Shown piece after piece: positions 7,015 through 54,100 of a DNA stretch of 64,000 nt; position 1 is the first letter of the stretch; each line of letters starts with the position of its first letter. The notes beneath the pieces were generated by a model. That model did not search any database, had not been told where the DNA came from, and was given only the letters and a program-made list of their open reading frames with translations. Made by a program: the position numbers and the translations under genes. The stretch lies in the NCBI GenBank assembly GCA_963762555.1, contig CAVXLO010000032.1, positions 22,392 through 86,391 on the forward strand, given 5' to 3'. The stretch comes from an uncultured Verrucomicrobiae bacterium (GTDB lineage Bacteria > Verrucomicrobiota > Verrucomicrobiia > Limisphaerales > UBA8199).

Positions 7015-7427
7015 AACGTTACTCCTATTCGAGCGGCATAATACTCGATCTACCGAAAGCTCACATTCCCGTTCCAGAGCCCGCTCGAACTGCGAGCAAT
7101 AATACCAGGAACCGTCAAGCGACTGCAAGCCCCATTCGGCGCCACGACCTGAGGCTCGAGACGTAGCCCGGGCGCTCTCGCCCGCGAGTCGGCGAGGGCG
7201 TCTCGCCTCGCCATTCCTTGGGTGCGGGCGGCAAGACGCCGCCATCCAGATCCGCTGTGGACCACTTTGTTCGATTAACCAGGCAGGCCCGATGCCAGCC
7301 GACAAAACCGCATTGGGGCGCCGCGTGAGGGCACACGGCCTACAGGGCGCTGGCCCCCCGTTGTAGGCCGCGTGCCCTCACGCGGCGTTCGGGGCTCCGG
7401 GCCGGGGCACGGGGACAGGGGACGAAT

Positions 7428-13788: not shown

Positions 13789-13891
13789 CCCAAAGCGCCA
13801 GAGGACTGGCGTAGTCCAGGACGCTTCGCGGTCGCCGGCGCTGGGGAGCCCGCGAAGCGTCTTGGACTGCGCCAGTCCTCTGGCGCTTTGG
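13789..13891. repeat. ~100-bp imperfect inverted repeat between convergent genes (REP/terminator-like)
   Basis: ccaaagcgccagaggactggcgtagtccaggacgcttcgcgg ... ccgcgaagcgtcttggactgcgccagtcctctggcgctttgg. The arms are ~42 nt with a few mismatches. The repeat starts 30 nt after the pentapeptide gene stop. Confidence 0.7.
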
Positions 13892-15345: not shown

Positions 15346-16321
<976 letters not shown>

Positions 16322-16586
16322 GTGTATTAACAAGACTAGACGAAGATAGACACGGATTCCACGGATTGTCACGGATAGCCGGGCCTCAATCCCTGGAACT
16401 TCGTGGAATCCGTGTCACCTTGAGGTGGGTCCTCATAGCTGTGCTGGCAGTCGGTGTATTTGAACGTCTCCCAGGTGCGGATCGGCTGACGGGGCGTCAC
16501 GGCGTCACAAGCCAGGTTGGCACGTAGCGGAGGTGTTTCCGGCAAGTGAGGCTTGTTTTCCGTTATCTCTCGCGTACTATTTTGCC

Positions 16587-17887: not shown

Positions 17888-18317
17888 CCCAGATGATCAT
17901 CTCGGTACCGGTCCAAACTGCAGTGTGCGCGCTACGTGCGGTGGGCGCGTCGGTGGTCGGCACAGCCGTCCAAACGTTAGCCAGGGGATTGTAGCGCCCG
18001 CCTGTGTTCAAGAAGCCGCTGTCGTTCCCCCCGCCCCAGATGATCATGTCGCTACCCGTCCACACTGCGGTGTGGCCGACACGCCCGGCGGGCGCACTCG
18101 TCATGGGTAGTGTCGTCCAACTGTCGGCCGCCGGATCGTAGCGCCCGCCTGTGTTCAAGAAGCCGCTGCCGCCCGACCCGCCCCAGACGATCATTTCGCT
18201 TCCAGTCCATACCGCCGTGTGAAACCCGCGCCAGGCGGGCGCGCCGGTCGCGGACACTGCCGCCCAACTGCTGGCTATCGGGTTGTAGCGCCCGCCGTTG
18301 TCGAATGCCATAGCCAA
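17871..18317 (-). CDS. Kelch paralogue A, fragment 2/3: blades 2-4
   Basis: (M)AFDNGGRYNPIASSWAAVSATGAPAWRGFHTAVWTGSEMIVWGG... The fragment ends at a frame break near 17880. Confidence 0.75.
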   Translation of the reverse strand: MAMAFDNGGRYNPIASSWAAVSATGAPAWRGFHTAVWTGSEMIVWGGSGGSGFLNTGGRYDPAADSWTTLPMTSAPAGRVGHTAVWTGSDMIIWGGGNDSGFLNTGGRYNPLANVWTAVPTTDAPTARSAHTAVWTGTEMIIWGGKYL

Positions 18318-19101
18318 CTCCGCCCCAGACGATCATCTCGCTCCCAGTCCATACCGCCGTGTGGGCATAGCGCGCGATGGGGCTGGGCGAGTGGTCAGCG
18401 CGCTGCGCCCAAATACCCAGAGGCAGTTTGACGAGAACAGCCCCAGCATCAAAGATGTAGCTGCCATAGGCGGTCTGGGTGAAGGCATTCCAGCCCGGAC
18501 TGCCGGTGAGATTGCCGGCGATGGCCTCGGTGGAACGGGAACCGTCGGTCCTGACGTAGGTGCCGAAGACCTGGATGGTCGAGCGGACCCCGGGGATCAT
18601 GCCGATGAGGGCAGCGGGGAAGCTGAAGGTGTAGGGACCAGTGTCATTGAGGGGAGCCAGGTTGGCGCTGCCGAGATATACCAGACTGCCGTTGGTGCCG
18701 TTGGCCAACTGCCACAAGCTGCCCGACTCGACCGCCGACGGACCAAGCACAATGGCATAGTTGGGCTTGAACCCGCTGGCGAAGGTCAGCAGGCTGCGGC
18801 CTGAGGCGGAGACGCCCGAAATGGCCTGGCAGCGGTAGTCGCCCTGGTCGTTGAAGCCGGAGGTGTCGGCAAAGCCGCCCGGGCCGGACTGAATATACAG
18901 GACCAGCACGTCATTCATGCTGCCGACAACGGTGAGCGTGCCGGAGATGTTGGTGCCGTCATCAGTCAAGGTGAGCGTGCCGTTGCCGATGGCGCCGCCG
19001 AAGCCGGTGTCGCCGTTGCCGCGGTATTGGTCCGCGCGTGCGGGCCAGGCCGCCATTAGGACAGATGCGGCCAGGAGGAGGAATTGCGTCGTCGTTTTCA
19101 C
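18052..19101 (-). CDS. Kelch paralogue A, fragment 1/3: signal peptide, ~270-aa N-domain and blade 1
   Basis: It begins MKTTTQFLLLAASVLMAAWPARADQYRGNGDTGFGGAIGNGTLTLTDDGTNISGTL... and runs to ...YAHTAVWTGSEMIVWGG. Sense is lost after ~18310, where the frame of ORF 17871..18317 takes over. Confidence 0.75.
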   Translation of the reverse strand: MKTTTQFLLLAASVLMAAWPARADQYRGNGDTGFGGAIGNGTLTLTDDGTNISGTLTVVGSMNDVLVLYIQSGPGGFADTSGFNDQGDYRCQAISGVSASGRSLLTFASGFKPNYAIVLGPSAVESGSLWQLANGTNGSLVYLGSANLAPLNDTGPYTFSFPAALIGMIPGVRSTIQVFGTYVRTDGSRSTEAIAGNLTGSPGWNAFTQTAYGSYIFDAGAVLVKLPLGIWAQRADHSPSPIARYAHTAVWTGSEMIVWGGVGYGIRQRRALQPDSQQLGGSVRDRRARLARVSHGGMDWKRNDRLGRVGRQRLLEHRRALRSGGRQLDDTTHDECARRACRPHRSVDG

Positions 19102-19119
19102 AGTCGCTAGTTCACTGCA

Positions 19120-21066
19120 TCAGGGAGACTCCGCCCGGAAGAATTGGGTGCCGCTCAGCGGCGAAATAGTGACATGGTTCTCCGCGCCGACTTGGGTGAT
19201 CGCATTTGTAACGGTGGTCCACTCGCCCGCGGCCAGGTTGGTGGTCTGAGACAGGCGCAGGGTTGGGTACCACACCGGCCAGACGACGTCGGCGCTGAAA
19301 GGGCTTAAGCGGGCAATTCGCACTGCCGGAGCGTATGGAGAATAGGACCAAGTGTCAGAAAGGTACTGACTGCTGCCACCGTCTCCCCCAAAGAGGATCA
19401 TCTCGCTCCCGGTCCACACCGCCGTGTGAAAATAGCGGGCGACAGGCGCGTCGGCGCTCGGTACCGCCGTCCAACTGTTGCCCACTGGATTGTAGCGCCC
19501 GCCGTCTGCATAGGGGGTCCCGTTGTTGAACCCGCCCCAGACGACCATCTCACTGCCGGTCCACACCGCTGTATGGTACTGGCGCGGGCCGGGCGCGCCG
19601 ATAGTGGACAGGGCCGCCCAGCGATCGGCGGCTGGATTGTAGCGCCCGCCGTTATTGAGATAGCGGCTAGTGCTGGCGTTATATCCACCCCAGGTGATCA
19701 TCTCGGTCCCCGTCCAAACCGCCGTGTGCGAAAAGCGCTCGCTGGGCGCGCCGTTAGTCGGTATTGCCGTCCAAGTGTTGGCTGCGGGATCGTAGCGCCC
19801 GCCGTCGTTGTAATAGCCTCTAACCTTCGCTCCACCCCAGATGACCATCTCGGTACCCGTCCACACCGCGGTGTGACCACTGCGGGCAGCGGGCGCCCCA
19901 GTGGCGGTCACTATAGCCCAACTGTTAAGAGCCGGATTGTAACGCCCGCCGTCGTTCAACTGGCCGGTGAACGTAGAGAAGATGTATCCATATCCGCCCC
20001 AGACGATCATCTCGCTGCCCGTCCACACCGCTGTGTGGTAGTCACGCCCAGTGGGCGCACCGGTCGTCGGTAGTGACGCCCAACTGTTGGCTGTTGGATT
20101 GTAGCGCCCGCCATCGTTGGAGTAGCCGGTGCCGCTCATTCCGGCCCAGACGATCATCTCGCTGCCTGTCCACACTGCTGAATGGTTTAGCCGCTTGGCC
20201 GGCGCGCCGATGGTAGGCAAGGTCGTCCAAGTGTTGGCCGCGGGATTGTAGCGCCCCCCGTCGTTTAAGGCACCCCCCCCGTTCTGTCCGCCCCAGACGA
20301 TCATCTCGCTCCCTGTCCACACTGCTGTATGATAACGGCGCGCGACCGGCGAACTGCTAGAGGTCCGTTGTGCCCAAAGGCCGACGGGCAGTTTGATGAG
20401 GACGGCGCCAGCGTCGAAGGTGTAGCCGCCATAGGCCGTTTGGGTGAACGGGTTCCAGCCTTGGGTGCCGGTGAGGTCCCCGGCGATGGACTCGGTCGAG
20501 CGGGAGCCGTCAGTCCTGACATAGGTGCCGAAGACCTGGATGGTCGAGCGGACCCCGGGGATCATGCCGATGAGGGCGGCTGGGAAACTGAAGGTGTAGG
20601 GACCGGTGTCGTTGGGGGGAGCCAGGTTGACGCTGCCGAGATTTACCAGGCTGCCGTTGCCGCCGTTGGCCAACTGCCACAGGCTGCCCGACTCGACCGC
20701 CGATGGACCAAGGGCGATGGCATAGTTGGGCCGGAACCCGCTGGCGAAGCTCAGCACGCTGCGGCCCGAGGCGGAGACGCCCGAGATAGCCTGGCAGCGA
20801 TAGTCGCCCTGGTCATTGAAGCCGGCGGTGTCGGCAAAGCCGCCCGGGCCGGACTGAATATAGAGCACCAGCACATCGTTCATGCTGCCGCCGACGGTAA
20901 GTGTGCCAGAGATGTTGGTGCCGTCATCGCTCAGGGTTAGCGTGCCGTTTCCGATGGCGCCGCCGAAGCCGGTGTCGCCGTTGCCGCGGTATGGATCCGC
21001 TCGTGCGGGCCAGGCGGCGAACAACCCCAGGGCCGCGAGAAGGAGGAATGGAATGGTGCTCTTCAT
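19120..21066 (-). CDS. Kelch paralogue B (648 aa), the only uninterrupted copy: signal peptide, N-domain, 7 blades, C-terminal module
   Basis: ORF 19120..21222. I moved the start to ATG 21066 (MKSTIPFLLLAALGLFAAWPARADPYRGNGDTGFGG...) by analogy with the paralogues. I count seven H(T/S)AVWTG..M..(W/F)(G/A)G motifs. It ends QFFRAESP*. Confidence 0.85.
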   Translation of the reverse strand: MKSTIPFLLLAALGLFAAWPARADPYRGNGDTGFGGAIGNGTLTLSDDGTNISGTLTVGGSMNDVLVLYIQSGPGGFADTAGFNDQGDYRCQAISGVSASGRSVLSFASGFRPNYAIALGPSAVESGSLWQLANGGNGSLVNLGSVNLAPPNDTGPYTFSFPAALIGMIPGVRSTIQVFGTYVRTDGSRSTESIAGDLTGTQGWNPFTQTAYGGYTFDAGAVLIKLPVGLWAQRTSSSSPVARRYHTAVWTGSEMIVWGGQNGGGALNDGGRYNPAANTWTTLPTIGAPAKRLNHSAVWTGSEMIVWAGMSGTGYSNDGGRYNPTANSWASLPTTGAPTGRDYHTAVWTGSEMIVWGGYGYIFSTFTGQLNDGGRYNPALNSWAIVTATGAPAARSGHTAVWTGTEMVIWGGAKVRGYYNDGGRYDPAANTWTAIPTNGAPSERFSHTAVWTGTEMITWGGYNASTSRYLNNGGRYNPAADRWAALSTIGAPGPRQYHTAVWTGSEMVVWGGFNNGTPYADGGRYNPVGNSWTAVPSADAPVARYFHTAVWTGSEMILFGGDGGSSQYLSDTWSYSPYAPAVRIARLSPFSADVVWPVWYPTLRLSQTTNLAAGEWTTVTNAITQVGAENHVTISPLSGTQFFRAESP

Positions 21067-21071
21067 AGTGT

Positions 21072-21113
21072 GTAGTCCGCAGTCCGTAGTCCGTAGTCCG
21101 TCGTCAGTAGTCC
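21072..21113. repeat. Heptanucleotide array (GTAGTCC)n, 6 units, filling the Kelch C/B intergenic spacer
   Basis: gtagtcc gcagtcc gtagtcc gtagtcc gtcgtca gtagtcc. It lies between the stop of gene C (21120) and the ATG of gene B (21066). Confidence 0.9.
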
Positions 21114-21119
21114 AGTTCG

Positions 21120-21785
21120 TTAGGGATACTCCGCTCGGAAGAACTGGCTCCCGATCAGGGGCGACAGGGTGACGCGGTTCTCCGAGCCGATCCGGGTGAC
21201 CGCATTGGTGACGGTGGTCCATTGGCCCGAGGCCAGGTTAGTAGTCCGGCACAGGCGCAGCGTGCTGGACCACACCGGCCAGGCAACGTCGGCGCTGTTG
21301 GGACCGGACCGCGACATCCGCACCGCAGGCGCGTAGGGATAATAGGACCACGTGTCAGACAGGCAACCGCTATCGCCGTATCCTCCAAAGAGGATCATCT
21401 GGCCGCCGGTCCACACCGCCGTGTGATGGTAGCGGGCGGGGGGCGCGCTCGTGCTCTGCACTGCCACCCAACTGTTGCCCGCCGGGTTGTAACGCCCGCC
21501 GTCGTTCAAGCAAACACCGCTGTGGTATCCGCCCCAGACAATCATCTCGCTGCCAGTCCACACCGCAGTATGCGCATAACGTGCGCCGGGGGCGCCCGAG
21601 GTCGCCACCGCCGTCCAGCCATTGCCCGCGGGACTGTAGCGCCCACCGTCGTTTAGATAGACCGAACTGCCGCCATAGCAGTATCCACCCCAGACGATCA
21701 TTTCACTGCCCGTCCAGACCGCTGTGTGATTAACGCGTGCGGCGGGCGCGCCGTTGGTGGGTAAAGCCGTCCAACTGTTGGCCAT
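21120..21785 (-). CDS. Kelch paralogue C, fragment 4/4: blades 12-14 and the C-terminal module
   Basis: ...GDGARYNP(M)ANSWTALPTNGAPAARVNHTAVWTGSEMIVWGG... to ...TTNLASGQWTTVTNAVTRIGSENRVTLSPLIGSQFFRAEYP*. Confidence 0.75.
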   Translation of the reverse strand: MANSWTALPTNGAPAARVNHTAVWTGSEMIVWGGYCYGGSSVYLNDGGRYSPAGNGWTAVATSGAPGARYAHTAVWTGSEMIVWGGYHSGVCLNDGGRYNPAGNSWVAVQSTSAPPARYHHTAVWTGGQMILFGGYGDSGCLSDTWSYYPYAPAVRMSRSGPNSADVAWPVWSSTLRLCRTTNLASGQWTTVTNAVTRIGSENRVTLSPLIGSQFFRAEYP

Positions 21786-22791
21786 GGGATTGTAGCGCGC
21801 GCCGTCGCCATAGGTACTTCGTGTTGTTGCATCCGCCCCAGACCATCATCTCGCCGTCCGTCCAGACCGCCGTGTGACCATAGCGCGCGGCGGGCGCACC
21901 GTTGGTGGGTAGGGTCGTCCAACTGTTGGCTGCCGAACTGTAGCGCCCGCCGTCGTTTAAGTACCCGCCGCTGTTACCTCCGCCCCAGATGATCATCTCG
22001 TTGCCCGTCCACACCGCTGTGTGCCGATAGCGGCCCGCAGGCGCGCCGTTGGTAGGCAAGCCCGTCCAGTTGTTGGCCGCGGGATTGTAGCGCGCGCCGT
22101 CCCCATAATAAGTGAAGTTCAGGTTTCCACCCCAGACGATCATTTCGCTGCCTGTCCAGACCGCCGAGTGAAAATAGCGCGCGGCCAGCGCGCCGCTGGT
22201 GGGCAGAGCTGTCCAACTGTTGGCCGCCGGATTGTACCGCCCACCGTCGTTGAAATAGACGACGCCGTTGTATCCCCCCCAGACGATCATTTCGCTGCCG
22301 GTCCACACCGCCGTGTGATCGTAGCGGGCGGGGGGCGTGCCAGGCACTGCCATCCAACTGTTGGCCGCCGCGTCGTAGCGCGCGCCGTCGTTCAGGTCTC
22401 TGCTGCCGTCGTATCCGCCCCAGACAATCATCTCGCTGCCCGTCCACACCGCCGTATGTCCCCAGCGCGCAGCCGCCGCTGTGGTAGGCAGGGCCGTCCA
22501 ACTGTCGGCGGCTGGATTGTAGCGCCCGCCGTCATTCAAAAGGCCGCTGCTGCCGGATCCACCCCAGACCATCATTTCGCTGCCGGTCCACACTGCCGTG
22601 TGATAAGAGCGCGCGGCGGGCGCACCCGTCATTGGTACCGCCGCCCAACTGTCGAGCGTGGGATTGTAGCGCCCGCCGTCGTTTAAACACTGCCGCCCAC
22701 TCCGCCCCAGACAATCATTTCGCTGCCCGTCCACACCGCCGTGTGGTACCCGCGTGCGGCGGGCGCGCCGTTGGTGGGTAAGGCCGTCCAA
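21730..22791 (-). CDS. Kelch paralogue C, fragment 3/4: blades 6-11
   Basis: The sensible part runs from ...CLNDGGRYNPTLDSWAAVPMTGAPAARSYHTAVWTGSEMMVWGG to ...GHTAVWTDGEMMVWGGCNNTKY. The break is near 21818. Confidence 0.75.
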   Translation of the reverse strand: MDGLTHQRRARRTRVPHGGVDGQRNDCLGRSGRQCLNDGGRYNPTLDSWAAVPMTGAPAARSYHTAVWTGSEMMVWGGSGSSGLLNDGGRYNPAADSWTALPTTAAAARWGHTAVWTGSEMIVWGGYDGSRDLNDGARYDAAANSWMAVPGTPPARYDHTAVWTGSEMIVWGGYNGVVYFNDGGRYNPAANSWTALPTSGALAARYFHSAVWTGSEMIVWGGNLNFTYYGDGARYNPAANNWTGLPTNGAPAGRYRHTAVWTGNEMIIWGGGNSGGYLNDGGRYSSAANSWTTLPTNGAPAARYGHTAVWTDGEMMVWGGCNNTKYLWRRRALQSHGQQLDGFTHQRRARRTR

Positions 22792-23273
22792 CTGTTGGCC
22801 ATGGGATTGTAGCGCCCGCCGTCATTGAAATAGCCGCCGCCGTTGCTTCCGCCCCAGACGATCATCTCGCTGCCCGTCCACACCGCCGTGAGCGACTGGC
22901 GCCCGGGTGGCGCGCCGCTGGTGGGCAGGGCCGTCCAACTGTTGGTCGCCGGATCGTAGCGCCCGCCGTCGTTGAAAAAGACGTAGCCGTTGCTGTAGCA
23001 ATATCCGCCCCAAACGATCATCTCGCTGCCCGTCCACACTGCCGTGTGGTGCTGGCGTGCGGCGGGCGCGCCGTTGGTGGGTAAGGCCGTCCAACTGTTG
23101 GCCACGGGATTGTAGCGCCCGCCGTCATTGAAATAGCCGCCGCCGTTGCTTCCGCCCCAGACGATCATCTCGGTGCCTGTCCATGCCGCGGTGTGATATT
23201 CACGTGCTGCGGGAGCGCCGGTGGTGGGCAGCGGCGTCCAAGCATTGGCCACGGGATCGTAACGCGCCGCCAT
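22683..23273 (-). CDS. Kelch paralogue C, fragment 2/4: blades 2-5
   Basis: (MA)ARYDPVANAWTPLPTTGAPAAREYHTAAWTGTEMIVWGG... The break near 22688 falls at a tttaaa run (GGSV / LNDGGRYNP). Confidence 0.75.
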   Translation of the reverse strand: MAARYDPVANAWTPLPTTGAPAAREYHTAAWTGTEMIVWGGSNGGGYFNDGGRYNPVANSWTALPTNGAPAARQHHTAVWTGSEMIVWGGYCYSNGYVFFNDGGRYDPATNSWTALPTSGAPPGRQSLTAVWTGSEMIVWGGSNGGGYFNDGGRYNPMANSWTALPTNGAPAARGYHTAVWTGSEMIVWGGVGGSV

Positions 23274-24075
23274 CGTTGAAATAGCTGCTGCTGCCGTGGT
23301 CTCCGCCCCACAGGATCATCTCGCTGCCCGTCCAGATTGCTGTGTGCATAGAGCGCCCTGCCGGTGAGTAGGGCCGCTGCGCCCAAACGCCCAGGGGCAG
23401 CTTGACGAGAACCGCTCCGGCATGAAAGGTGTAGCTGGCATAGGCAGTCTGGCTGACAGGGTTCCAGCCTTGGGTGCCGGTGAGGTTGCCGACGATGGCC
23501 TCGGTCGAGCGGTAGCCGTTGGTGGAGACGTAAGTGCCGAAAAGCTGGAAGGTAGAGCGCACGCCCGGGATCATGCCGATCAGGGCCGCCGGGAAGCTGA
23601 AGGTGTAAGGGCCGGAGTCGTTGAGTGGCGCCAGATTGATGCCGCCCAGATACAACAGGCTATTGGTGTCCCCATTGGCCAACTGCCATACGCCCCCCGT
23701 GCCCCCTGCCGCCGGAGCCAGGGCGATGGCGTAGTTGGGCTGGAATCCACTGGCGAAGGTCAGCAGGCTGCGGCCCGAGGCGGAGACGCCCGAAATGGCC
23801 TGGCAGCGGTAGTCGCCCTGGTCGTTGAAACCGGAGGTGTCGGCGAAGCCGCCCGGGCCGGATTGAATATAGAGCACCAGCACGTCATTCATGCTGCCGC
23901 CGACGGTGAGCGTGCCGGAGATGTTGGTGCCGTCATCAGTCAAGGTGAGCGTGCCGTTGCCGATGGCGCCGCCGAAGCCGGTATTGCCGTTGCCGTGGTA
24001 TTGCTCCCCTTGCGCTGGCCAGGCCGCCAGCAACAAAAGGGCATTGAGAAAGAGGAATCTGCTAATCGTCTTCAC
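23200..24075 (-). CDS. Kelch paralogue C, fragment 1/4: signal peptide, N-domain and blade 1
   Basis: MKTISRFLFLNALLLLAAWPAQGEQYHGNGNTGFGGAIGNGTLTLTDDGT... to ...MHTAIWTGSEMILWGG. The frame breaks near 23270. Confidence 0.75.
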   Translation of the reverse strand: MKTISRFLFLNALLLLAAWPAQGEQYHGNGNTGFGGAIGNGTLTLTDDGTNISGTLTVGGSMNDVLVLYIQSGPGGFADTSGFNDQGDYRCQAISGVSASGRSLLTFASGFQPNYAIALAPAAGGTGGVWQLANGDTNSLLYLGGINLAPLNDSGPYTFSFPAALIGMIPGVRSTFQLFGTYVSTNGYRSTEAIVGNLTGTQGWNPVSQTAYASYTFHAGAVLVKLPLGVWAQRPYSPAGRSMHTAIWTGSEMILWGGDHGSSSYFNDGGALRSRGQCLDAAAHHRRSRST

Positions 24076-24140
24076 GGTGTGAGGGTTTAGGATTCACGAT
24101 ATGCGGTTTGCGATTGGTCGGTAGTCAGCACTTCATTGGG

Positions 24141-25214
24141 CTACGGATACTCGGCCCGGAAGAATTGCCTGCCGCTTAGCGGCGAAACGGTGACGTGGTT
24201 CTCGGAGCCGTCCTGAGTGGCTGCATTGGTGACGGTAGTCCATTGGCCGGAGGCAAGGTTAGTAGTCTGGCACAGACGCAGAGGGCTGGACCACACCGGC
24301 CAGGCGACGTCGGTACTGGTGGGGCTGGAGCGGGAAATCCGCACTGCCGGTGCATAGGGATAATAGGACCAGGGGTCAGCGAGGTAAACACCGCCGCCCT
24401 TAGATCCTCCAAATACAATCATTTCGCTGCCCGTCCACACCGCTGTGTGAAAGTAACGAGGGGCGGGCGCGCCGGCGGTCGGCATTGCCGCCCAACTATT
24501 GGCTGCGGGACTGTAGCGCCCGCCGTCGTTTAGCAAGCTGCCGTTGTGATAGCCGCCCCAGACGATCATTTCGCTACCTGTCCAGATCGCCGTGTGTCCA
24601 TAGCGTCCGGCAGGCCCGCTGGAGGCGGGCAGGCTCACCCAGCCATTGGCCACCGGATCGTAGCGTCCGCCGTCGTCGAAATAGGTGGCGGCGCCATTCC
24701 ATCCACCCCAGACGATCATCTCGCCGCCCGTCCAGACCGCCGTGGGGTAAAAACGCGCGGAGGGAGCGCCCGCGGTCGGCACTGCCGCCCAACTGTTGGC
24801 CGTCGGATTGAAGCGTCCACCGTTGTTTAAGTAGCCGGTGGTCGCGTTGTATCCGCCCCAGACGATCATCTCGCTGCCGGTCCACACCGCCGTGTGCGCA
24901 TAACGGGCGGCGGGCGCGCCAGTGGTGGGCACCGCCGTCCAAGCATTGCCTGTCGGATTATAACGCCCGCCGTTATTGAAATAGCTGCTGCCTTGCCCAC
25001 CCCAGACGATCATCTCGCTACCGGTCCAGACCGCGGTATGATTCACACGCGCGGCAGGCGCGCCGGTTGTTGGCACCGCCGTCCAACTGTTGGCCACCGG
25101 ATTGTAGCGCCCGCCATCGTTGAAGAGGCTGCTGCCTAGCCCACCCCAGACGATCATCTCGCTGCCCGTCCATATCGCCGTGTGATACTCACGGGCGCCG
25201 GGCGCACCGGTCAT
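24141..25214 (-). CDS. Kelch paralogue D, fragment 2/2: blades 9-14 and the C-terminal module
   Basis: MTGAPGAREYHTAIWTGSEMIVWGG... to ...TTNLASGQWTTVTNAATQDGSENHVTVSPLSGRQFFRAEYP*. A short third frame (SDGGRYNPTANAWSVMN) bridges 25258..25215. Confidence 0.75.
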   Translation of the reverse strand: MTGAPGAREYHTAIWTGSEMIVWGGLGSSLFNDGGRYNPVANSWTAVPTTGAPAARVNHTAVWTGSEMIVWGGQGSSYFNNGGRYNPTGNAWTAVPTTGAPAARYAHTAVWTGSEMIVWGGYNATTGYLNNGGRFNPTANSWAAVPTAGAPSARFYPTAVWTGGEMIVWGGWNGAATYFDDGGRYDPVANGWVSLPASSGPAGRYGHTAIWTGSEMIVWGGYHNGSLLNDGGRYSPAANSWAAMPTAGAPAPRYFHTAVWTGSEMIVFGGSKGGGVYLADPWSYYPYAPAVRISRSSPTSTDVAWPVWSSPLRLCQTTNLASGQWTTVTNAATQDGSENHVTVSPLSGRQFFRAEYP

Positions 25215-25217
25215 GGT

Positions 25218-27164
25218 TCATGACCGACCAGGCGTTGGCGGTCGGATTGTAGCGGCCCCCGTCAGACAGTAGTGGCTGCCCGTAGCCATATCATAGTAAT
25301 ACCCACCCCAAACGATCATCTCGCTGCCGGTCCAGACCGCGGTATGTTCGGAGCGCCCCGTTGGCGACGGGAACGCGGTCCAAGCGTTGGCTATCGGGTT
25401 GTAGCGCCCGCCATCATTCAGGGAGACGGGGCTGCCTCCGCCCCAGATGATCATTTCGCTGCCGGTCCACACCGCCGTGTGCAAAGAGCGCGAGGTGGGC
25501 ACGCCGTTAGTAGGCAGAGTTGACCACGTATTCGCCACCGGATTGTAGCGCCCCCCAGTGTTGAGATAGAAGGCGTTCCAATTTCCTCCCCAGATGACCA
25601 TCTCACTGCCGATCCAGACCGCGGTGTGATTACAGCGAAAGGTAGGTGCACCAGTGGCAGTCAAAGGGGTCCAACTGTCGGCGGTTGGACTATAGCGTCC
25701 GCCGTCGCTGAAATAGGTGCTACCGTTGCGTCCACCCCAGACGAGCATCTCGCTGCCCGTCCATACCGCCGAGTGTAACTCGCGCGCGACAGGCGCGCCA
25801 GCAGTTGGCAGGGCTACCCAACTATTGGCCGTTGGACTGTAGCGCCCGCCGTCGTTCAAGCGGCTGCCGTTGTATCCGCCCCAGATGATCATTTCCGTCC
25901 CGGTCCACACCGCCGTGTGCCACTGTCGGGCGGTCGGCGCGTTGGTGCTTGGGAGCGCGGTCCAACTGTTGGCCGTTGGACTGTAGCGCCCACCGTCGTT
26001 CCGGTAGCTGCCGTCGTATCCGCCCCACACTACCATTTCACTACCGGTCCACACTGCCGTGTGCCGATAACGTGGGGCAGGCGCGTTGGTCGTGGGCAGG
26101 GCTGCCCAAGTGTTGGCCGCTGGATCATAGCGCCCACCGTCGTTCAAATAGCCTCCATTAGATCCACCCCAGACGATCATCTCGGTGCCGCTCCAAACCG
26201 CGGTGTGACCAGCGCGGGCAACGGGCGCACCGGCGGTCGGCAGCGCGGTCCACATATCGGCCGCGGGGTTGTAACGGCCACCATCACTGAAGTAGCTGGC
26301 GCCGTCCCAGCCGGCCCAGACGATCATCTCGCTGCCCGTCCAGATCGCTGTGTGTGAGAAGCGTGCGGCGGGAGAATAACCTGGCCGCTGCATCCAGGCA
26401 CCCCGGGGCAGTTTCACCAGGAGGGCGCCAGCATCAAAGGTATATTCGGCGTACGCGGTTTGGGTGAAGGGATTCCAGCCCTGAATGCCGGTGAGGTCCC
26501 CGGCGATGGCCTCGGTGGAGCGGTAGCCGTTGGTGGAGACGTACGTGCCAAACACCTGGATGGTCGAACGGACGCCGGGGATCATTCCAATGAGAGCAGC
26601 CGGGAAGCTGAAGGTGTAGGGGCCGGAGTCGTTGAGGGGCGCCAGGTTGACGCTGCCCAGGTACACCAGGCTGTTGCTGCCACCGTTGGCCAACTGCCAC
26701 AGGCCGCTCATGCCGGCCGCCGCCGGAGCCAAGGCAATCGCGTAGTTAGGCCGGAACCCGTTGGCGAAGGTCAGCAGGCTGCGGCCTGACGCGGAAACAC
26801 CCGAAATAGCCTGGCGGCAGGCGTCGCCCTGGTCGTTGAAGCCGGAGGTGTCGGCAAACCCGCCCGGACCTGACTGAACATAGAGGACCAACACGTCATT
26901 CATGCCCCCTCCGACGGTGAGCGTGCCGGAGATGTTGGTGCCGTCGTCGGTCAAGGTGAGCGCGCCGTTGCCGATGGCGCCGCCGAAGCCGATGTCGCCG
27001 TTGCCGTGGTATTGATCGGCTCGCACCGGACCAGCGGCGAGCAGCCCTGCGGCGGCGAAGAGGGCGCCCAACCTGATTCGACTCACCGCCGGTCGCTCCC
27101 TTACAGGTCTGGCGGTGGCGGCCTTGGATTCAAAATGCACGAGTACAGCAGCCCTGGTTTTCAT
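25218..27164 (-). CDS. Kelch paralogue D, fragment 1/2: signal peptide, N-domain and blades 1-8
   Basis: 648-aa ORF. The paralogue-like signal peptide starts at an in-frame GTG at 27086 (VSRIRLGALFAAAGLLAAGPVRADQYHGNGDIGFGG...), so the ATG at 27164 may be too far upstream. Sense is lost after ...VWGGYYYDMATGSHY (~25258). Confidence 0.75.
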   Translation of the reverse strand: MKTRAAVLVHFESKAATARPVRERPAVSRIRLGALFAAAGLLAAGPVRADQYHGNGDIGFGGAIGNGALTLTDDGTNISGTLTVGGGMNDVLVLYVQSGPGGFADTSGFNDQGDACRQAISGVSASGRSLLTFANGFRPNYAIALAPAAAGMSGLWQLANGGSNSLVYLGSVNLAPLNDSGPYTFSFPAALIGMIPGVRSTIQVFGTYVSTNGYRSTEAIAGDLTGIQGWNPFTQTAYAEYTFDAGALLVKLPRGAWMQRPGYSPAARFSHTAIWTGSEMIVWAGWDGASYFSDGGRYNPAADMWTALPTAGAPVARAGHTAVWSGTEMIVWGGSNGGYLNDGGRYDPAANTWAALPTTNAPAPRYRHTAVWTGSEMVVWGGYDGSYRNDGGRYSPTANSWTALPSTNAPTARQWHTAVWTGTEMIIWGGYNGSRLNDGGRYSPTANSWVALPTAGAPVARELHSAVWTGSEMLVWGGRNGSTYFSDGGRYSPTADSWTPLTATGAPTFRCNHTAVWIGSEMVIWGGNWNAFYLNTGGRYNPVANTWSTLPTNGVPTSRSLHTAVWTGSEMIIWGGGSPVSLNDGGRYNPIANAWTAFPSPTGRSEHTAVWTGSEMIVWGGYYYDMATGSHYCLTGAATIRPPTPGRS

Positions 27165-27240
27165 TGGCGCTCCATCTTTGTCTTATCGGGTGGGCGGCGT
27201 CAAGGCTTTTGTGGAACATTGTGCCAGGGGGCCAGGGGGT

Positions 27241-27374
27241 CAGGGCTGTTGACAAAGTCCGCCCTGGGAGCGCCGGCATCCTTGCCGGCACCTGGGAAAA
27301 GCGGAAATATGCCGGCAAGGATGCCGGCGCTCCCAGGGATCTCGCTGTTTGGCCGACTTTGTCAACGGCCCTGG
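27241..27374. repeat. Nested palindromic element related to the core of the 155-bp MITE-like repeat
   Basis: cagggctgttgacaaagtc-cgccctgggagcgccggcatccttgccggca ... tgccggcaaggatgccggcgctcccaggg ... gactttgtcaacggccctg. The inner arms share CCTGGGAGCGCCGGCATCC(C/T)TGCCGGCA with the copies at 48.8 and 60.4 kb. Confidence 0.8.
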
Positions 27375-27494
27375 CCTACCCTTCAATCCGTTGTCCCTGA
27401 TGCGCTTTCATTAACCCGGCTTTACTGGGGGAATCCGAGCCACCCTGAGGCCACCCTGAAGCGCCCCTCAGGCTTACTGGTGGCCAACCGGTAG

Positions 27495-27593
27495 GCACCC
27501 TGAGGCTACCCTGAGGCTACCCCGAGGCTCCACCTGGGCTACCCTGAGGCTCCACCTGGGCTACCCTGAGGCTCCACCTGGGCTACCCCGTGA
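27495..27593. repeat. 11-bp-period tandem array (9 units), alternating ctaccctgagg / ctccacctggg
   Basis: gcaccctgagg ctaccctgagg ctaccccgagg ctccacctggg ctaccctgagg ctccacctggg ctaccctgagg ctccacctggg ctaccccgtga. Two further degenerate units lie at 27441..27462. Confidence 0.9.
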
Positions 27594-48689: not shown

Positions 48690-48796
48690 ATGCGGTCAAT
48701 CGAAGGGCTGGGTGTCGCATTCACTTCACTTCTGCGCGATTCTTCCCCAACCAGGGCACGGCGTCAATCCCGGGAGCAGTGTGCTCGCCGGACGGA

Positions 48797-48952
48797 GCGC
48801 AACTCACGTTATCGGCCCTGGCCCCTGGGAGCGCCGGCATCCCTGCCGGCACCTTGCAACATCGTCCGATTTGAGGTAAATGCCAAAGTGTTCCGCGAGA
48901 GCAGGCCGACAGGGATGTCGGCGCTCCCAGGGGCCGATAACGTGAGTTGCGC
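48797..48952. mobile_element. 156-bp MITE-like palindromic repeat, copy 1
   Basis: gcgcaactcacgttatcggccctgg..cctgggagcgccggcatccctgccggca ... cggcgctcccaggggccgataacgtgagttgcgc. It is nearly identical along its whole length to 60390..60544 and has ~50-nt terminal inverted repeats. Confidence 0.8.
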
Positions 48953-49065
48953 CCCCGCCGGACGAGCGTACCCTGGCGGTACCACCATTTGGACTGCGCC
49001 GGCAGAGCCTGCTCCTTACACGGATTCTCATTGTCTCGAATACTATCTGGATCAGAGAGGCCAAT

Positions 49066-49200
49066 TCCCCCTCACCCTACCCTCTCCCCAAGGAGAGGGA
49101 ACCCCGGGCTGCAGCGCTCGAAAGGTCCGAGCGCTTCAGGTTGGGCGACCGTCTGACGAGGGTGCTCCCTCTCCTTGGGGAGAGGGTAGGGTGAGGGGGA
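49066..49200. repeat. 135-bp inverted repeat whose arms each contain a CCCTCTCC..GGAGAGGG hairpin
   Basis: Left arm: cccctcaccctaccctctccccaaggagaggga. Right arm: tccctctccttggggagagggtagggtgaggggg. The central hairpin is gcgctcg-aaaggtc-cgagcgc. Confidence 0.8.
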
Positions 49201-49592
49201 ACGGGCTTGGCAATCCACAGGACCTATACCAGAGATACAGATCCGTGTAAGGAGCCGGCAATGTCGTGGCGTCGCGTAGCGAGGCACGGACTCGATGGCC
49301 GGCGCTCGCAGCCGGGCGGATCAAACGCCGCTACGCGACGCGATGACCACCCCCTGGCCGGCTACCCGCAAGACAGGAATTGGCCTATCTCGAGCAGGGG
49401 GAGAGCAAGGGGAAAGCTCTCTCCCCTGCCCGGCCAGAGCAACGTCCCTCTCAGCCTCTCACGTCTCGGCCACGGTCCTCGCCACACATCTTCATGCGTA
49501 TTTGCATCCCGGCTCAAGCTGCTAGCATGGTCAAGCCCGATGCCAGTGTTATGAGGGGCGGTCAAATGAATCGCTTGCAAACATGAAGGGCG

Positions 49593-50441: not shown

Positions 50442-50514
50442 GCTCCCGACGCGGGAAGAGCCGCGGCACAAAGTCCCCCGCGCGGCGCTCAGTACATTCG
50501 GGAGCGAGAAGAGC

Positions 50515-50900
50515 CCATTCCTTTCAGTTCATGAACCGTGGCGACCCATCTTCGTCTGCCTCCGGCGAGGAAAGCCTGGTGGAAGGCCATTTTCCTGGAC
50601 GACCGTGACCGTGAGCTGGAAGTGTGGTGCCTAGGGTGCGAGGAGTTCCGGCAGGAACTCCTGGCCCAGGCGAGCGAATTGGCTGTTCGGGAGCACCGGC
50701 GGGGAAGACATCCCCCGGTCGGCGCAGCAGAAGGCAGAGCGGATTGTGCAGGAGGAGTTGGGGAAGTTCGGGTGGGGCGTGCCAGATGAACCTGCGATAG
50801 TCAGTGCCGGCAAAAGTGGGCCTTTTGGCGAGGTCTGAAGAAAGGCCGACAGCAGGCAACGGGATGGAAGCAACGCTGCACAAGTGCCTGGCAATCTAAG
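50515..50900 (+). pseudogene. Decayed, internally deleted IS200/RAYT-like (Y1 HUH) transposase remnant
   Basis: Across shifting frames I read HSFQFMNRGD (compare YHVMNRG), then ...AIFLDDRDREL (the conserved IF.DD.DR..F block), which joins directly to EEFRQELLAQASE...EH.G...RSAQQKAERIVQEELGKFGWG, resembling the C-terminal half of these proteins. The HUH/Y catalytic core between them is missing. The family assignment is from memory. Confidence 0.4.
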
Positions 50901-50994
50901 ACTTGTGTCATCCATAGGCAAAGTCGTGGAGATAGGTTGTTCTGGTAACCCCCGGATGTCCGATGCTCGACCACTCCGGGGTCTGTCTTGCACT

Positions 50995-51169
50995 GTGACC
51001 AGGTAGTGACCATGTAGTCACCAGGTAGTGACCATGTAGTCACCAGGTAGTGACCATGTAGTGACCAGGTAGTGACCAGGTAGTAGAGCTACTACATGGT
51101 CACTACCTGGTCACTACATGGTCACTACATGGTCACTACCTGGTGACTACATGGTCACTACCTGGTCAC
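50995..51169. repeat. 175-bp palindrome built from 11-bp tandem units (8 units, 10-nt centre, 7 inverted units)
   Basis: Left arm: gtgaccaggta gtgaccatgta gtcaccaggta gtgaccatgta gtcaccaggta gtgaccatgta gtgaccaggta gtgaccaggta. Centre: gtagagctac. Right arm: tacatggtcac tacctggtcac tacatggtcac tacatggtcac tacctggtgac tacatggtcac tacctggtcac. The outer four units (44 bp) of the two arms are perfectly complementary. Confidence 0.95.
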
Positions 51170-51496
51170 AGGGGGATAGAGGGGCGCGTGCCGGTCAGGG
51201 GCGTCTCGGAAGAGAATGCCCCGAACCCTCTCCCAAAAACGGGAGACTGCTTGCGATTGCCCCTCCCGATCCCCAACGGAGAATGCCGATTAGGGGCGGG
51301 TGCCCGCTACCCACCCCTTCTTCCCGCCAGTGGCAACTGGGGAAATAATCAATGCAATTGCCAGAAACGCCGCAAGCTATGGGTTCACCCGTTTATTGCG
51401 TCAGGGGCCGAGCGGGTCCTACAGCATAAATGAGAAGCGAACCCCAAATCGCTAGCTCGCATCCGGTATGGAGTCGGCGGGGTGGAACTCACAGCT

Positions 51497-52396
51497 TCAG
51501 GTGGAACCCCGGCGGCTGGCGGGAGGGTCCCCGGTGTATCGGCGGAAGACGGTGCTGAAATACTGGCTGGAGTTGAAGCCCGCGGCCAGGGCGACCTCGG
51601 TGATGGTGCGACGCGGATCTTTCAGCAGCTCCATGGCCTTCTCGATGCGCATTCGTTGCAGGCAGTCGTTCGGCGTGAGCCCCAGTTCCGATCTGAACAA
51701 CTGGAACACGCGCGCGCGGCTGAAGCCGAGATGCTGCACCAGGTCGGGGATGCGGACTGGCTCCGCACAATGCTGGCGCAGGTACTCAACCCCGGCGGCG
51801 ACGATCTCCTTCGGCCCCCCGGGCCGGACCGACATCTGGCGCGAGGCCTCCAGCACTATGGCGCAGACCAGCGTGCGCAGGGCCGCGTCCGCGTCCAGCC
51901 GGCGCGGCTCTTCCCAATACGCCGCGATTTCCTCCTTCAGCCAGCGCAGCAACCAGCGGAGGGCCGGGCTGACCGGGCGCATGGTAAAAGCGGAACTCTG
52001 AAGCAAGGACTGGATCCGGGCCAGGTCCGGGCCGGTGAACGGCGTGCCCTGGGCGGCATGCCGGTGGCCGGGGTTCAGAGCCAGACCGCAAATCGTCGCG
52101 GGAGCCCGCACGCCGTGAGCGCCTCGATGCTCAGCCCGGGGCGGGACCACCAGGAAATGGCCGCCGTGCAGCTCGACGGTGTGCCGCCGCTTGAATTCGT
52201 AGGCCGTGGCGCCCTCCAGCACCAAGAGCAGCTCATAGCTCGCATGCGAATGCCAGGAAATGTGGCTGGCGCGGTGGATGGCAACCATGCCGGCATACGC
52301 GAGCAGCGGCAGTCCGATGCTCGTGCCGGGGATTTGCTCCGGGACATTCAGGAGCGGCATGTTCAAAATTGTATCGTGGACTATATCGCAAGACAA
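51497..52396 (-). CDS. AraC-family transcriptional regulator (cupin plus HTH)
   Basis: 299 aa. The C-terminus is ...IPDLVQHLGFSRARVFQLFRSELGLTPNDCLQRMRIEKAMELLKDPRRTITEVALAAGFNSSQYFSTVFRRYTG. The gene is divergent from the sugar-acid cluster. Confidence 0.85.
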   Translation of the reverse strand: MSCDIVHDTILNMPLLNVPEQIPGTSIGLPLLAYAGMVAIHRASHISWHSHASYELLLVLEGATAYEFKRRHTVELHGGHFLVVPPRAEHRGAHGVRAPATICGLALNPGHRHAAQGTPFTGPDLARIQSLLQSSAFTMRPVSPALRWLLRWLKEEIAAYWEEPRRLDADAALRTLVCAIVLEASRQMSVRPGGPKEIVAAGVEYLRQHCAEPVRIPDLVQHLGFSRARVFQLFRSELGLTPNDCLQRMRIEKAMELLKDPRRTITEVALAAGFNSSQYFSTVFRRYTGDPPASRRGST

Positions 52397-52475
52397 CTCT
52401 GGGATAGGCTGCGAATCTAGGCGCGAATGAGCCGGGTGGCTGCCGCTATAAGCGCAATTAAACTAAATAGAATAT

Positions 52476-52653
52476 ATGAAGAAATGTGCAGCAGTGTTAA
52501 CGCTGGTCGTCGCAGGCGCAAACCAACTCGCTGAGCGCTGGCCTGACCACCACCTGGGCCGGAACGGATATCCCGGGAACCGATTTGGTTACCTCGACCG
52601 ACAATCCCATCAGCCTCGACAATGCCGCGGTGTTCTTCCGCCTGCGCCAGTAA
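52476..52653 (+). CDS. Possible ~58-aa secreted mini-protein ending in the FFRLRQ module (needs one frameshift)
   Basis: MKKCAAVLTLVVAGA (signal-like), then one frame over TNSLSAGLTTTWAGTDIPGTDLVTSTDNPISLDNAAVFFRLRQ*. This is weak evidence. Confidence 0.2.
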
Positions 52654-52766
52654 CGACCGGTTGAGAGACCGAACATCGGCTTTGGGTTCGCCCAGAATTG
52701 ACGCTCCAGCGAAGGTCACCGATCCTCTTTTTGCCGCGCCGGCCTGCCATGGGGCGGCGCGGGCTT

Positions 52767-54100
52767 ATGAAGCAGCTTAAACTAATCTTGCTTGGCCGTA
52801 ATTCGGAGCCGCGGGCCCTCCGAGCCCGGAGGCTGGGAATATTCCTGCTCGTCGCCGCGCTGGCGGCGGGCGCGGTCCGCGCCGCCGCGCCGCTCGGGAG
52901 CGTGCCCGGCACCGTAATTGCCGCGAGTTCGAACGCGAGCACGGTGTTTCTTGGTTCGCCCAGCCTGGCGATTTTACCCGGGGGCGCTTACGCCGCCAGC
53001 TACGACATCGGAGGGAAAGAATCCGCGCGCCGGCCACACGGCGATCTGCGCCTCGAGCGACCGCGGCAAGAACTGGACGCAGCTTGCGGAGCTGACCGCC
53101 CAGCACTGGAGCAACGCTCTTCACGCACCGGGACGCGCTCTGGCTGATCGGCGTGTCAACGAAAGGCGGCCACATCCAGCTCCGCCGCTCGACCGACGGC
53201 GGGCGCACGTGGACCGCGCCGGCGGATGGAAAATCCGGATTGCTGGCCACGGATGGCAAATTTCATTGCGGTCCAACGCCGGTCATTGTCCACGCGGGGC
53301 GGGTGTGGCGCGCGTTCGAGGAATTCGCGCCGACGGGCAACGCCCGCATATTTCGCGCATTCATGCTCTCCGCGCCCGCCGACGCCGACCTGCTGGACGC
53401 GGCAAGCTGGACTCGCAGCAGCGCGATTGCGTGCCAGGCGCGAGTGGCTCAACGTCCGAACCCCGTCGTGGCTCGAGGGCAACGCGGTTGTCACTCCGTC
53501 CGGAGCTATGGTGGATATCCTGCGGGTCGAATCGCATCAGGCTGCCGGCGGCGAGCCGGGAATTGCCCGGGTGCGAGCCCGGAACATCCCGCGCTTTGAG
53601 GCGGCGGCGATGCTGGAGATCTCGGCGGACGGCCGCGAGGCGCACTTCGAGCCCGCCCGCGGGTTTATCCATTTCATCGGCGGCGAATCGAAGTTCACGA
53701 TCCGTTTCGATCCGGTCTCCCGCCGTTACTGGAGCCTGGCCAACAAGATCACCAACCGCCGGTCCGGGGAACGATTGGGAACACAGCCCGCATCACCAGC
53801 GCAATGTCATCGCGCTTGACGTCATCTGCCGATCTGCGCGACTGGCAGGAACACTACCGTCTCCTGCGCTACGCCGAAGGCTCTATGGTGGTGAAAGCCG
53901 GCTCGCGGGTCGGTTTTCAATACCTCGACTGGCAGTTCGACGGCGATGATATCATCGCGGTATGCCGCACGTCGTGGGACGGCATAAACTATCACGACGC
54001 CAACTACATCACCTTTCACCGCCTCAAGCATTTCCGCACCCTCACCCTGGCTGACTCGCCGCCGGACCTGGCCGGCGGAGCTGCCAAATCAGACACCGGA
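52767..54100 (+). CDS. BNR/Asp-box sialidase-like glycosidase, heavily frameshifted as assembled (at least 5 breaks); 3' end uncertain
   Basis: Joined reading: MKQLKLILL...LVAALAAGAVRAAAPLGSVPGTVIAASS...YDIGGKES / ...GHTAICASSDRGKNWTQLAELTAQHWS / TLFTHRDALWLIGVSTKGGHIQLRRSTDGGRTWTAPADG...RVWRAFEEF... / ...WLEGNAVVTPSGAMVDILRVES...FIGGESKFTIRFDPVSRRYWSLANKITN / ...HQRNVIAL / SSADLRDWQEHYRLL...FQYLDWQFDGDDIIAVCRTSWDG... It has two Asp-boxes (SSDRGKNW and STDGGRTW). Confidence 0.55.

Follow-up and report, generated by a model that had tools for sequence, protein, structure and literature searches.

Long palindromes and quasi-palindromes of E. coli form hairpins in replication and are cleaved by SbcCD. 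Long, highly similar and spacer-less palindromes make up the most recombinogenic class, and their instability is expected (PMC7999016). Bacterial minisatellites (VNTRs) are head-to-tail arrays that change by slipped-strand mispairing. Units of 11 bp are known from parC of plasmid R1, a site of 159 bp in which two sets of five direct iterons, each iteron bound by one ParR dimer, are separated by a 39-bp promoter region (PMC2241845), and from the CarH-type operator, which has three 11-bp direct repeats (PMC9304148). Inverted arms built of short tandem repeats that snap back are found in the Drosophila FB and Galileo foldback transposons (PMC3688188). Finally, REPs are imperfect palindromes of 20-40 bp with a stem of 5-13 bp and a GTAG or CGTC tag, which are present in many copies, can be reiterated in tandem and occur in Verrucomicrobia (PMC3733652). 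Here, we analyzed a locus in a 64-kb stretch of DNA (the window) whose form is that of a minisatellite combined with a long palindrome. Each of the two is of a known kind, and the combination is unusual.

The locus is a near-perfect inverted repeat of 179 bp (50993-51171) in non-coding DNA, and it contains 15 copies of an 11-bp unit with the consensus GTSACCAKGTA. The coordinates of the features are collected in Table 1. Eight direct units, a 10-nt centre and seven reverse-complement units had been reported in the initial annotation, and exact pattern matches were obtained at all 15 units, eight on the plus strand and seven on the minus strand. Identical arrays were returned by Tandem Repeats Finder and by the repeat finder. 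Three unit types were distinguished, A (GTGACCAGGTA), B (GTGACCATGTA) and C (GTCACCAGGTA), the last accounting for only 3 of the 15 units. From its outer end inward, the left arm reads ABCB-C-BAA, and the right arm likewise reads ABCB-BAB. The outer four units of both arms are perfectly complementary over 44 bp, as claimed before, or over 46 bp when the CT/AG by which the palindrome reaches 2 nt past the units on each side is counted. The inner units had been described as shuffled; the inner arms do differ, but the difference amounts to the insertion or deletion of a single 11-bp unit, the fifth of the left arm, and a G/T substitution in the innermost unit. The remaining difference is a central A·G pair (A51087/G51088), the sole unpaired pair at the centre, so only 2 of the central 10 nt are left unpaired.

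Table 1. Features of the palindrome locus and its surroundings in the window.
Feature	Coordinates	Strand
Prepilin-type N-terminal methylation-domain gene, convergent with araC; product identical to protein P0244	49596..50441	+
Gene remnant, frameshifted and 3'-truncated, from an internally deleted multi-copy gene	50470..50786	+
Left unique flank, GC 0.55, no homolog, without credible ORF	50787..50992	
Left arm: CT + 8 direct 11-bp units (50995-51082; A B C B C B A A) + GTAGA	50993..51087	+
Centre GTAGAGCTAC, holding the 4-nt palindrome AGCT; axis between A51087 and G51088	51083..51092	
Right arm: 7 reverse-complement units (51093-51169; minus strand, from outer end inward A B C B B A B) + AG	51088..51171	-
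Right unique flank, GC 0.60, no homolog	51172..51396	
Terminator-like small hairpin with T-rich tail, 44 nt past the araC stop codon	51436..51453	-
AraC-family regulator gene, 287 aa from Met; 3' end toward the palindrome	51497..52360	-

Higher-order periods were revealed by Tandem Repeats Finder, namely 22 bp (B-C) in the left arm, with 96% matched, and 33 bp in the right arm. When the direct array is aligned with the reverse-complement array, their identity is ~75%. Every unit carries an identical 5-bp site, since GTCAC is GTGAC read on the opposite strand. GTAG occurs nine times and CTAC eight times within the palindrome. The arms open with 5'-TGTGAC and close with GTCACA-3', which gives TG...CA termini. 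The G+C content of the palindrome is 0.50, against 0.635 for the window (flanks in Table 1). Elsewhere in the 64 kb, the consensus has no exact match and two matches with one mismatch; the expectation was 1.63 matches per shuffle, and a total of 17 was not attained in any of 100 shuffles. The palindrome is a real feature and not a product of chance.

The palindrome lies in the convergent intergenic region 50442-51496, 550 nt from the stop codon of the prepilin-type gene. A sister protein (P0124, 97% identical) of the product of this gene is encoded on a 51.8-kb contig. The initial annotation had placed the palindrome upstream of the AraC regulator, ~330 nt from the araC start. Because araC is on the minus strand, the palindrome is in fact 3' of the gene, 326 nt beyond its stop codon and ~1.2 kb from its start. 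The encoded protein combines a cupin/AraC-binding domain at the N-terminus with an HTH_18/HTH_AraC domain at the C-terminus. The proposed link with this regulator was not supported, given the position of the array and the conserved terminator-like hairpin that araC has of its own. Half-sites of AraC-family proteins are typically ~17-20 bp, which is longer than the 11-bp unit. The unit motif, even with one mismatch, was not found in the divergent promoter region 52361-52917. With the array 3' of araC and the motif missing from that promoter region, the palindrome is not a credible AraC-family operator, as judged from sequence.

Those homologs that carry a name come from Verrucomicrobia. In the closest relative, L023 (AraC 89% identical), the araC hairpin is kept together with ~100 nt of the 3' tail, and the homology ends at 51397. 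In the five araC relatives, the upstream genes are conserved and the downstream DNA is different in each. The palindrome is surrounded by a 610-bp segment (50787-51396) that is bordered by a truncated gene remnant on one side and by the conserved araC 3' tail on the other. No homolog of this segment was found in any of the fetched loci or in plasmid or phage collections, and it holds no credible ORF. Since the DNA downstream of araC differs in every relative and nothing homologous to the flanks was found, there is no empty site to compare with. A flank motif, GGGGATAG, is common to the high-GC contig L015, which is within chance for the number of comparisons. Analysis of the neighbouring ORFs with Pfam gave a prepilin-type domain, AraC, DUF2961, DHDPS and others; genes for partition or for small DNA-binding proteins were not detected among them.

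The gene remnant had been annotated as a decayed RAYT/IS200-like gene ~95 nt from the palindrome. It is indeed a remnant of an internally deleted multi-copy family; however, its homology ends at 50786, 207 nt from the palindrome, and no family was assigned to it by Pfam, NCBIfam, PDB sequence search or exhaustive HMMER (short fragments only). It consists of an N-terminal piece (...FQFMNRGD / KAIFLDDRDRELE) fused to WCLGCEEFRQELLAQ...GWG and is without any catalytic core. Its N-terminal motif is one that we take to be typical of IS200/RAYT-type tyrosine transposases, and the label of a decayed RAYT is plausible on the basis of this motif. Positions 50581-50786 show 80-86.5% DNA identity to short genes of three metagenome contigs (L025-L027), which are internally deleted as well, with an N-terminal MARKLRVQYPGAIYHVMTRGDRREAIFLDDHDRELF... 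joined to a C-terminal ...EELRQELLAQVSELAGPEHRGEE...GWG... Protein P0247 has exactly the same junction as the remnant, RDRELE-x-WCLG-x-EE; the copy in the window is additionally frameshifted and cut off. The deleted gene (N-terminal ~45 aa plus C-terminal ~110 aa) was observed in varied contexts (50470-50786 of the window; L025 2420-2911; L027 1573-1968; P0247), with at least two distinct deletion junctions and with one copy beside a DDE-transposase gene. This suggests that it is a non-autonomous derivative of a mobile gene.

The capacity to form a hairpin or cruciform, which had been proposed before, was supported by the inverted repeat itself and by predicted folds. The RNA fold has an energy of -178.6 kcal/mol (z = -15.2) and the DNA fold of -100.3 kcal/mol (z = -18.4), and in neither case did any shuffle equal it. 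Both folds have a stem of ~80 bp, continuous except for an 11-nt bulge and one internal mismatch, and a tip consisting of a 6-bp stem with a 4-nt loop. Thus, a single-stranded DNA or RNA form of the palindrome should adopt a very stable hairpin. The palindrome is non-coding. In both arms, each inward frame contains 3-6 stop codons and the outward frames are nearly open; no family was assigned to the outward ORFs. The predicted hairpin together with the inward stops would impede incoming transcription, translation and replication. The number of units would be prone to change in a hairpin-forming array, and nothing points to selection for any of these effects. The helical repeat of DNA is ~10.5 bp, so 11-bp units drift by ~4 bp over eight units, and the strict phasing on one face of the helix suggested in the initial annotation was overstated. 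The statement that the locus is not a CRISPR array was confirmed, since the 11-bp units are contiguous and have no spacers, whereas a CRISPR array was taken to have repeats of ~23-50 bp and unique spacers of similar length.

The locus resembles the long palindromes of E. coli in its adjacent inverted arms of ~84-95 nt, which are ~98% identical, in having essentially no spacer and in its very stable predicted hairpin; replication stalling and recombination are the expectation from that type (PMC7999016). In contrast to these palindromes, the arms are an 11-bp minisatellite, which provides many alternative registers, and, unlike the engineered ones, the palindrome is natural and chromosomal. With bacterial minisatellites it shares head-to-tail units, single-base variants, the 22-bp period and a unit indel. 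It differs from ordinary minisatellites in that two opposed arrays abut as a palindrome.

The distribution of the unit was examined in several collections. Among species-representative genomes (one genome per species, 185,579 species; source not recovered), two adjacent units were present in three short arrays, in records named Longimicrobiales, Acidimicrobiales and Nocardioides, and none of the genomes titled Verrucomicrobia has even two adjacent units. A metagenome scan for unit arrays returned 15 contigs with a G+C content from 0.42 to 0.70, several of which are rich in microsatellites and eukaryotic-looking. The scan of a viral collection returned one contig, which was already among these 15; three control patterns gave 0, 0 and 0 matches against 1 for the real pattern, a comparison with no statistical power. 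The palindromic arrangement was seen at 0 of 18 other distinct unit loci, and the palindrome is the sole case of abutting inverted arrays in ~237 kb (the window and the fetched loci). The genes beside the short unit arrays in other phyla have no common neighbour, and the literature search for the 11-mer yielded primer sequences only. Given the many 11-bp arrays in databases, coincidental unit arrays elsewhere are unremarkable by a rough, uncalibrated estimate. We conclude that GTSACCAKGTA does not appear to be a conserved family and that the palindrome is probably private to its lineage. In the high-GC contigs, the unit arrays adjoin other short arrays (L002 1706-1742 and 1781-1830; L009 632-685 and 1146-1221; L015 62-104 and 123-217), which differ in sequence: 8-bp ACGGGTTG, and 11-bp GCCACGGTTTT and CCGCCCGATCC. 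The presence of unit arrays beside other arrays in unrelated contigs indicates that short-unit arrays tend to cluster.

The palindrome is most likely a by-product of replication errors and not a regulatory device. The specific reading that we prefer, to which we give an even chance, is that an 11-bp minisatellite grew by slippage and was then inverted by a strand switch, without demonstrated function. According to this scheme, an 11-bp motif in decaying intergenic DNA would first have been amplified by slipped-strand mispairing into a tandem array. The array would have acquired three single-base variants, and two-unit blocks would have been duplicated too, giving the 22-bp B-C period. In the second step, replication or break repair would have switched strands where the array ends, at the short palindrome AGCT, and the resulting inverted copy would have given a perfect palindrome. 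In the third step, slippage would have added or removed one unit and a G/T substitution would have arisen. We infer the order of these events, the strand switch and the absence of function; what was observed is the anatomy of the locus, the near-identity of its arms, its uniqueness and its lack of conservation, and the thermodynamics are those of the predicted folds. Both arms have the same order of units, apart from an exact 11-bp indel and a single substitution, and this suggests that the inverted duplication was recent and that slippage came after it. The palindrome is present in a single copy and sits in unconserved, decaying DNA at a synteny breakpoint. Moreover, the other 11-bp arrays and long palindromes of the window suggest that this genome tolerates and generates such structures.

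For arms of ~84 nt with almost no spacer, instability is expected, so the survival of the palindrome could hint at selection or protection. Its persistence argues for either a recent origin or protection. We consider the former more likely, given how little the arms differ and given that relatives lack the element. There are two counterpoints to neutral slippage. The 11-bp period is common to all three intergenic arrays of the window, which could reflect a protein or structural constraint, and GTSACCAKGTA is also tandemly repeated in a few unrelated contigs. If an origin by slippage and strand switch is correct, the locus is a clean natural case of a bacterial chromosome turning a minisatellite into a near-perfect palindrome and tolerating it, which would be of modest interest for genome instability and for quality control of assemblies.

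Other explanations were weighed against this origin. An unlikely one is a protein-binding array, in which a small dimeric protein (ribbon-helix-helix, ParR-like) would coat the units, each centred on GTSAC, a pseudo-palindromic pentamer. It is equally unlikely that the two opposed nucleoprotein blocks so formed would serve as a centromere-like site, a silencer or a barrier to replication or transcription. The length of the unit and the overall size, two blocks of 11-bp units in ~160-180 bp, resemble parC of plasmid R1 (PMC2241845). In addition, the same 5-bp site (GTGAC/GTCAC) is present in every unit, and the 11-bp period recurs in all intergenic arrays of the window. However, the parC blocks are direct and flank a promoter next to parM/parR, whereas the blocks described here are inverted and abut at a 10-nt join. 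The scan found no promoter-like site in the palindrome, and neither par genes nor other genes for partition or small DNA-binding proteins were detected nearby. The array also exists as one copy and was conserved in none of the relatives examined. A ParR-parC type centromere was rejected for the mismatch in orientation, promoter content and neighbouring genes. The motifs of some other DNA-binding systems were also compared. That of the CarH-type operator appears not to fit. A CRP-like site was rejected because the spacing in the window is GTGA-N8-TCAC rather than N6, and a matS-like site because GTGAC/GTCAC are separated by 6 nt rather than 3 nt. A replication terminus or fork trap was rejected as well, as the GC-skew profile has no switch at the palindrome.

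Slightly less probable is a mobile element, either a foldback-type miniature whose arms consist of transposase-binding units or a REP/BIME-like cluster once served by the neighbouring gene. Several observations are in line with it: the TG...CA ends, the terminal inverted repeats (50993-51087 against 51088-51171), the remnant of a multi-copy, internally deleted gene 207 nt off, and the likeness to the inverted arms of Foldback and Galileo, which are built of transposase-binding tandem repeats (PMC3688188). GTAG/CTAC recur in the array, and GTAG-tagged REPs are known in Verrucomicrobia, e.g., in Opitutus terrae (PMC3733652); the B-C and C-B junctions can make 5-bp stems, and the remnant is a possibly related gene nearby. 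Against a foldback element, there is no target-site duplication (the flanks are TGCAC and GGGGG) and no second copy in the 64 kb or among the species-representative genomes. FB and Galileo are eukaryotic, kilobase-scale, multi-copy and flanked by target-site duplications, whereas this is a single element of 179 bp. As for REPs, their copies number from tens to thousands and usually alternate in orientation, and the 11-bp unit is confined to one locus. A REP/BIME was rejected on these grounds and because the 11-bp unit is not self-complementary: it makes no stem-loop by itself, and only junctions with the scarce type C give the 5-bp stem. The remnant has neither the HUH/Y1 core of a cognate RAYT nor repeats on both sides, as no repeat was found on its other side; it breaks off before the array is reached, and homologs of the remnant elsewhere lack any such 11-bp array. 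Furthermore, REP/MITE status would suit another palindromic family of this genome, present three times in the window, better than the 11-bp array.

Just as improbable as a mobile element is a selected transcription barrier, in which the hairpin in read-through RNA would act as a bidirectional terminator, an RNase III site or a stabiliser of 3' ends. The addition that inward stop codons would end translation is given the same low probability. This explanation fits the location between convergent genes, the very stable predicted RNA hairpin, the 3-6 stops in each inward frame of both arms and the fact that the plus-strand gene has no canonical terminator behind it. However, the flanks of the palindrome, AGGGGGAT on the plus strand and AGTGCAAG on the minus strand, have no T run, so neither arm is followed by the U-tract of a canonical terminator. 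The scan for intrinsic terminators found no site at the palindrome and only that of 51453-51436, i.e., the conserved small hairpin that araC already has. The distance from the stop codon of the plus-strand gene (550 nt) is also unfavourable. Moreover, the palindrome is missing from relatives, which argues that it has not been long maintained by selection. The best Rfam score for the palindrome was 47.4 bits, to a microRNA precursor model with a threshold of 100; such sub-threshold microRNA matches on both strands are expected of any long hairpin, and the gathering score was reached by nothing in the window.

Still more doubtful is that the locus represents a functional nucleoprotein or mobile device new to bacteria, with opposed 11-bp blocks, dimer-coated or with foldback ends, that belongs to a wider class of period 11. 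This possibility follows from the period shared by the three arrays of the window and by several arrays of high-GC contigs, where the arrays neighbouring the unit arrays have a different sequence and the same 11-bp period. The three intergenic tandem arrays of the window (27442-27588, 41547-41599 and the palindrome) are all of period 11 and differ in sequence. The likeness of their units (8 of 11 positions) is not significant after rotations and strands are taken into account. The shared period may be a sampling effect or may reflect a structural or protein rule, and in the latter case the palindrome would matter more. The array at 27442-27588 (ACCCTGAGGCT / CCACCTGGGCT) has ~13 copies and the one at 41547-41599 (TCCCCCTGTAA) has ~4 copies; they are located ~280-290 nt upstream of the starts of minus-strand ORFs of 648 aa and 337 aa, respectively.

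The least probable explanation is an artefact of assembly or library preparation, a foldback chimera or a mis-resolved tandem array, which comes to mind because assemblies often go wrong at palindromes and at short tandem arrays and because the source is a contig of 88,576 bp assembled from a metagenome; yet each flank is unique, differs from the other and leads into genuine genes, for which close homologs exist, the centre must have been present in reads, and the ~75% identity between the forward and reverse arrays probably leaves no long exact words to confuse the assembly graph. In particular, a simple foldback chimera is unlikely: it would mirror the flank, but neither flank mirrors the other, and an indel and a substitution distinguish the arms.

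Several other repeats and features were noted in the window, which is rich in long hairpin-forming DNA. Palindromic repeats of ~140-175 bp with a nested structure form a family at 27238-27376, 48788-48961 and 60388-60546, with GGGCGCAACTCACGTTATCGGCCC as the outer and CCCTGGGAGCGCCGGCATCCCTGCCGGC as the inner arms. Two of the copies are 94% identical, the third shares the inner arms only, and the family is absent from the fetched relatives. More long palindromes, with arms of 26-47 nt, are located at 7319-7387, 13790-13891, 49060-49206 and 16349-16416; the one at 49060-49206 has a motif of the CCCTCTCCCC...GGGGAGAGGG type. ARAGORN reported a 97-nt tRNA-Pro (CGG) at 58891-58987, inside a long plus-strand ORF (57954-59489). 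Rfam gave no tRNA at the gathering threshold in the window, and the call is probably a false positive or an unusual gene. Tandem arrays of 7 bp, ACTTCGG in ~16 copies and GTAGTCC in 6 copies (15740-15845 and 21072-21113), both overlap long ORFs. Finally, runs of ~147-bp repeats, matching at 65-77% and numbering up to 13 copies, extend over several long minus-strand ORFs in the region 17986-26354 and presumably encode a repeated protein domain.
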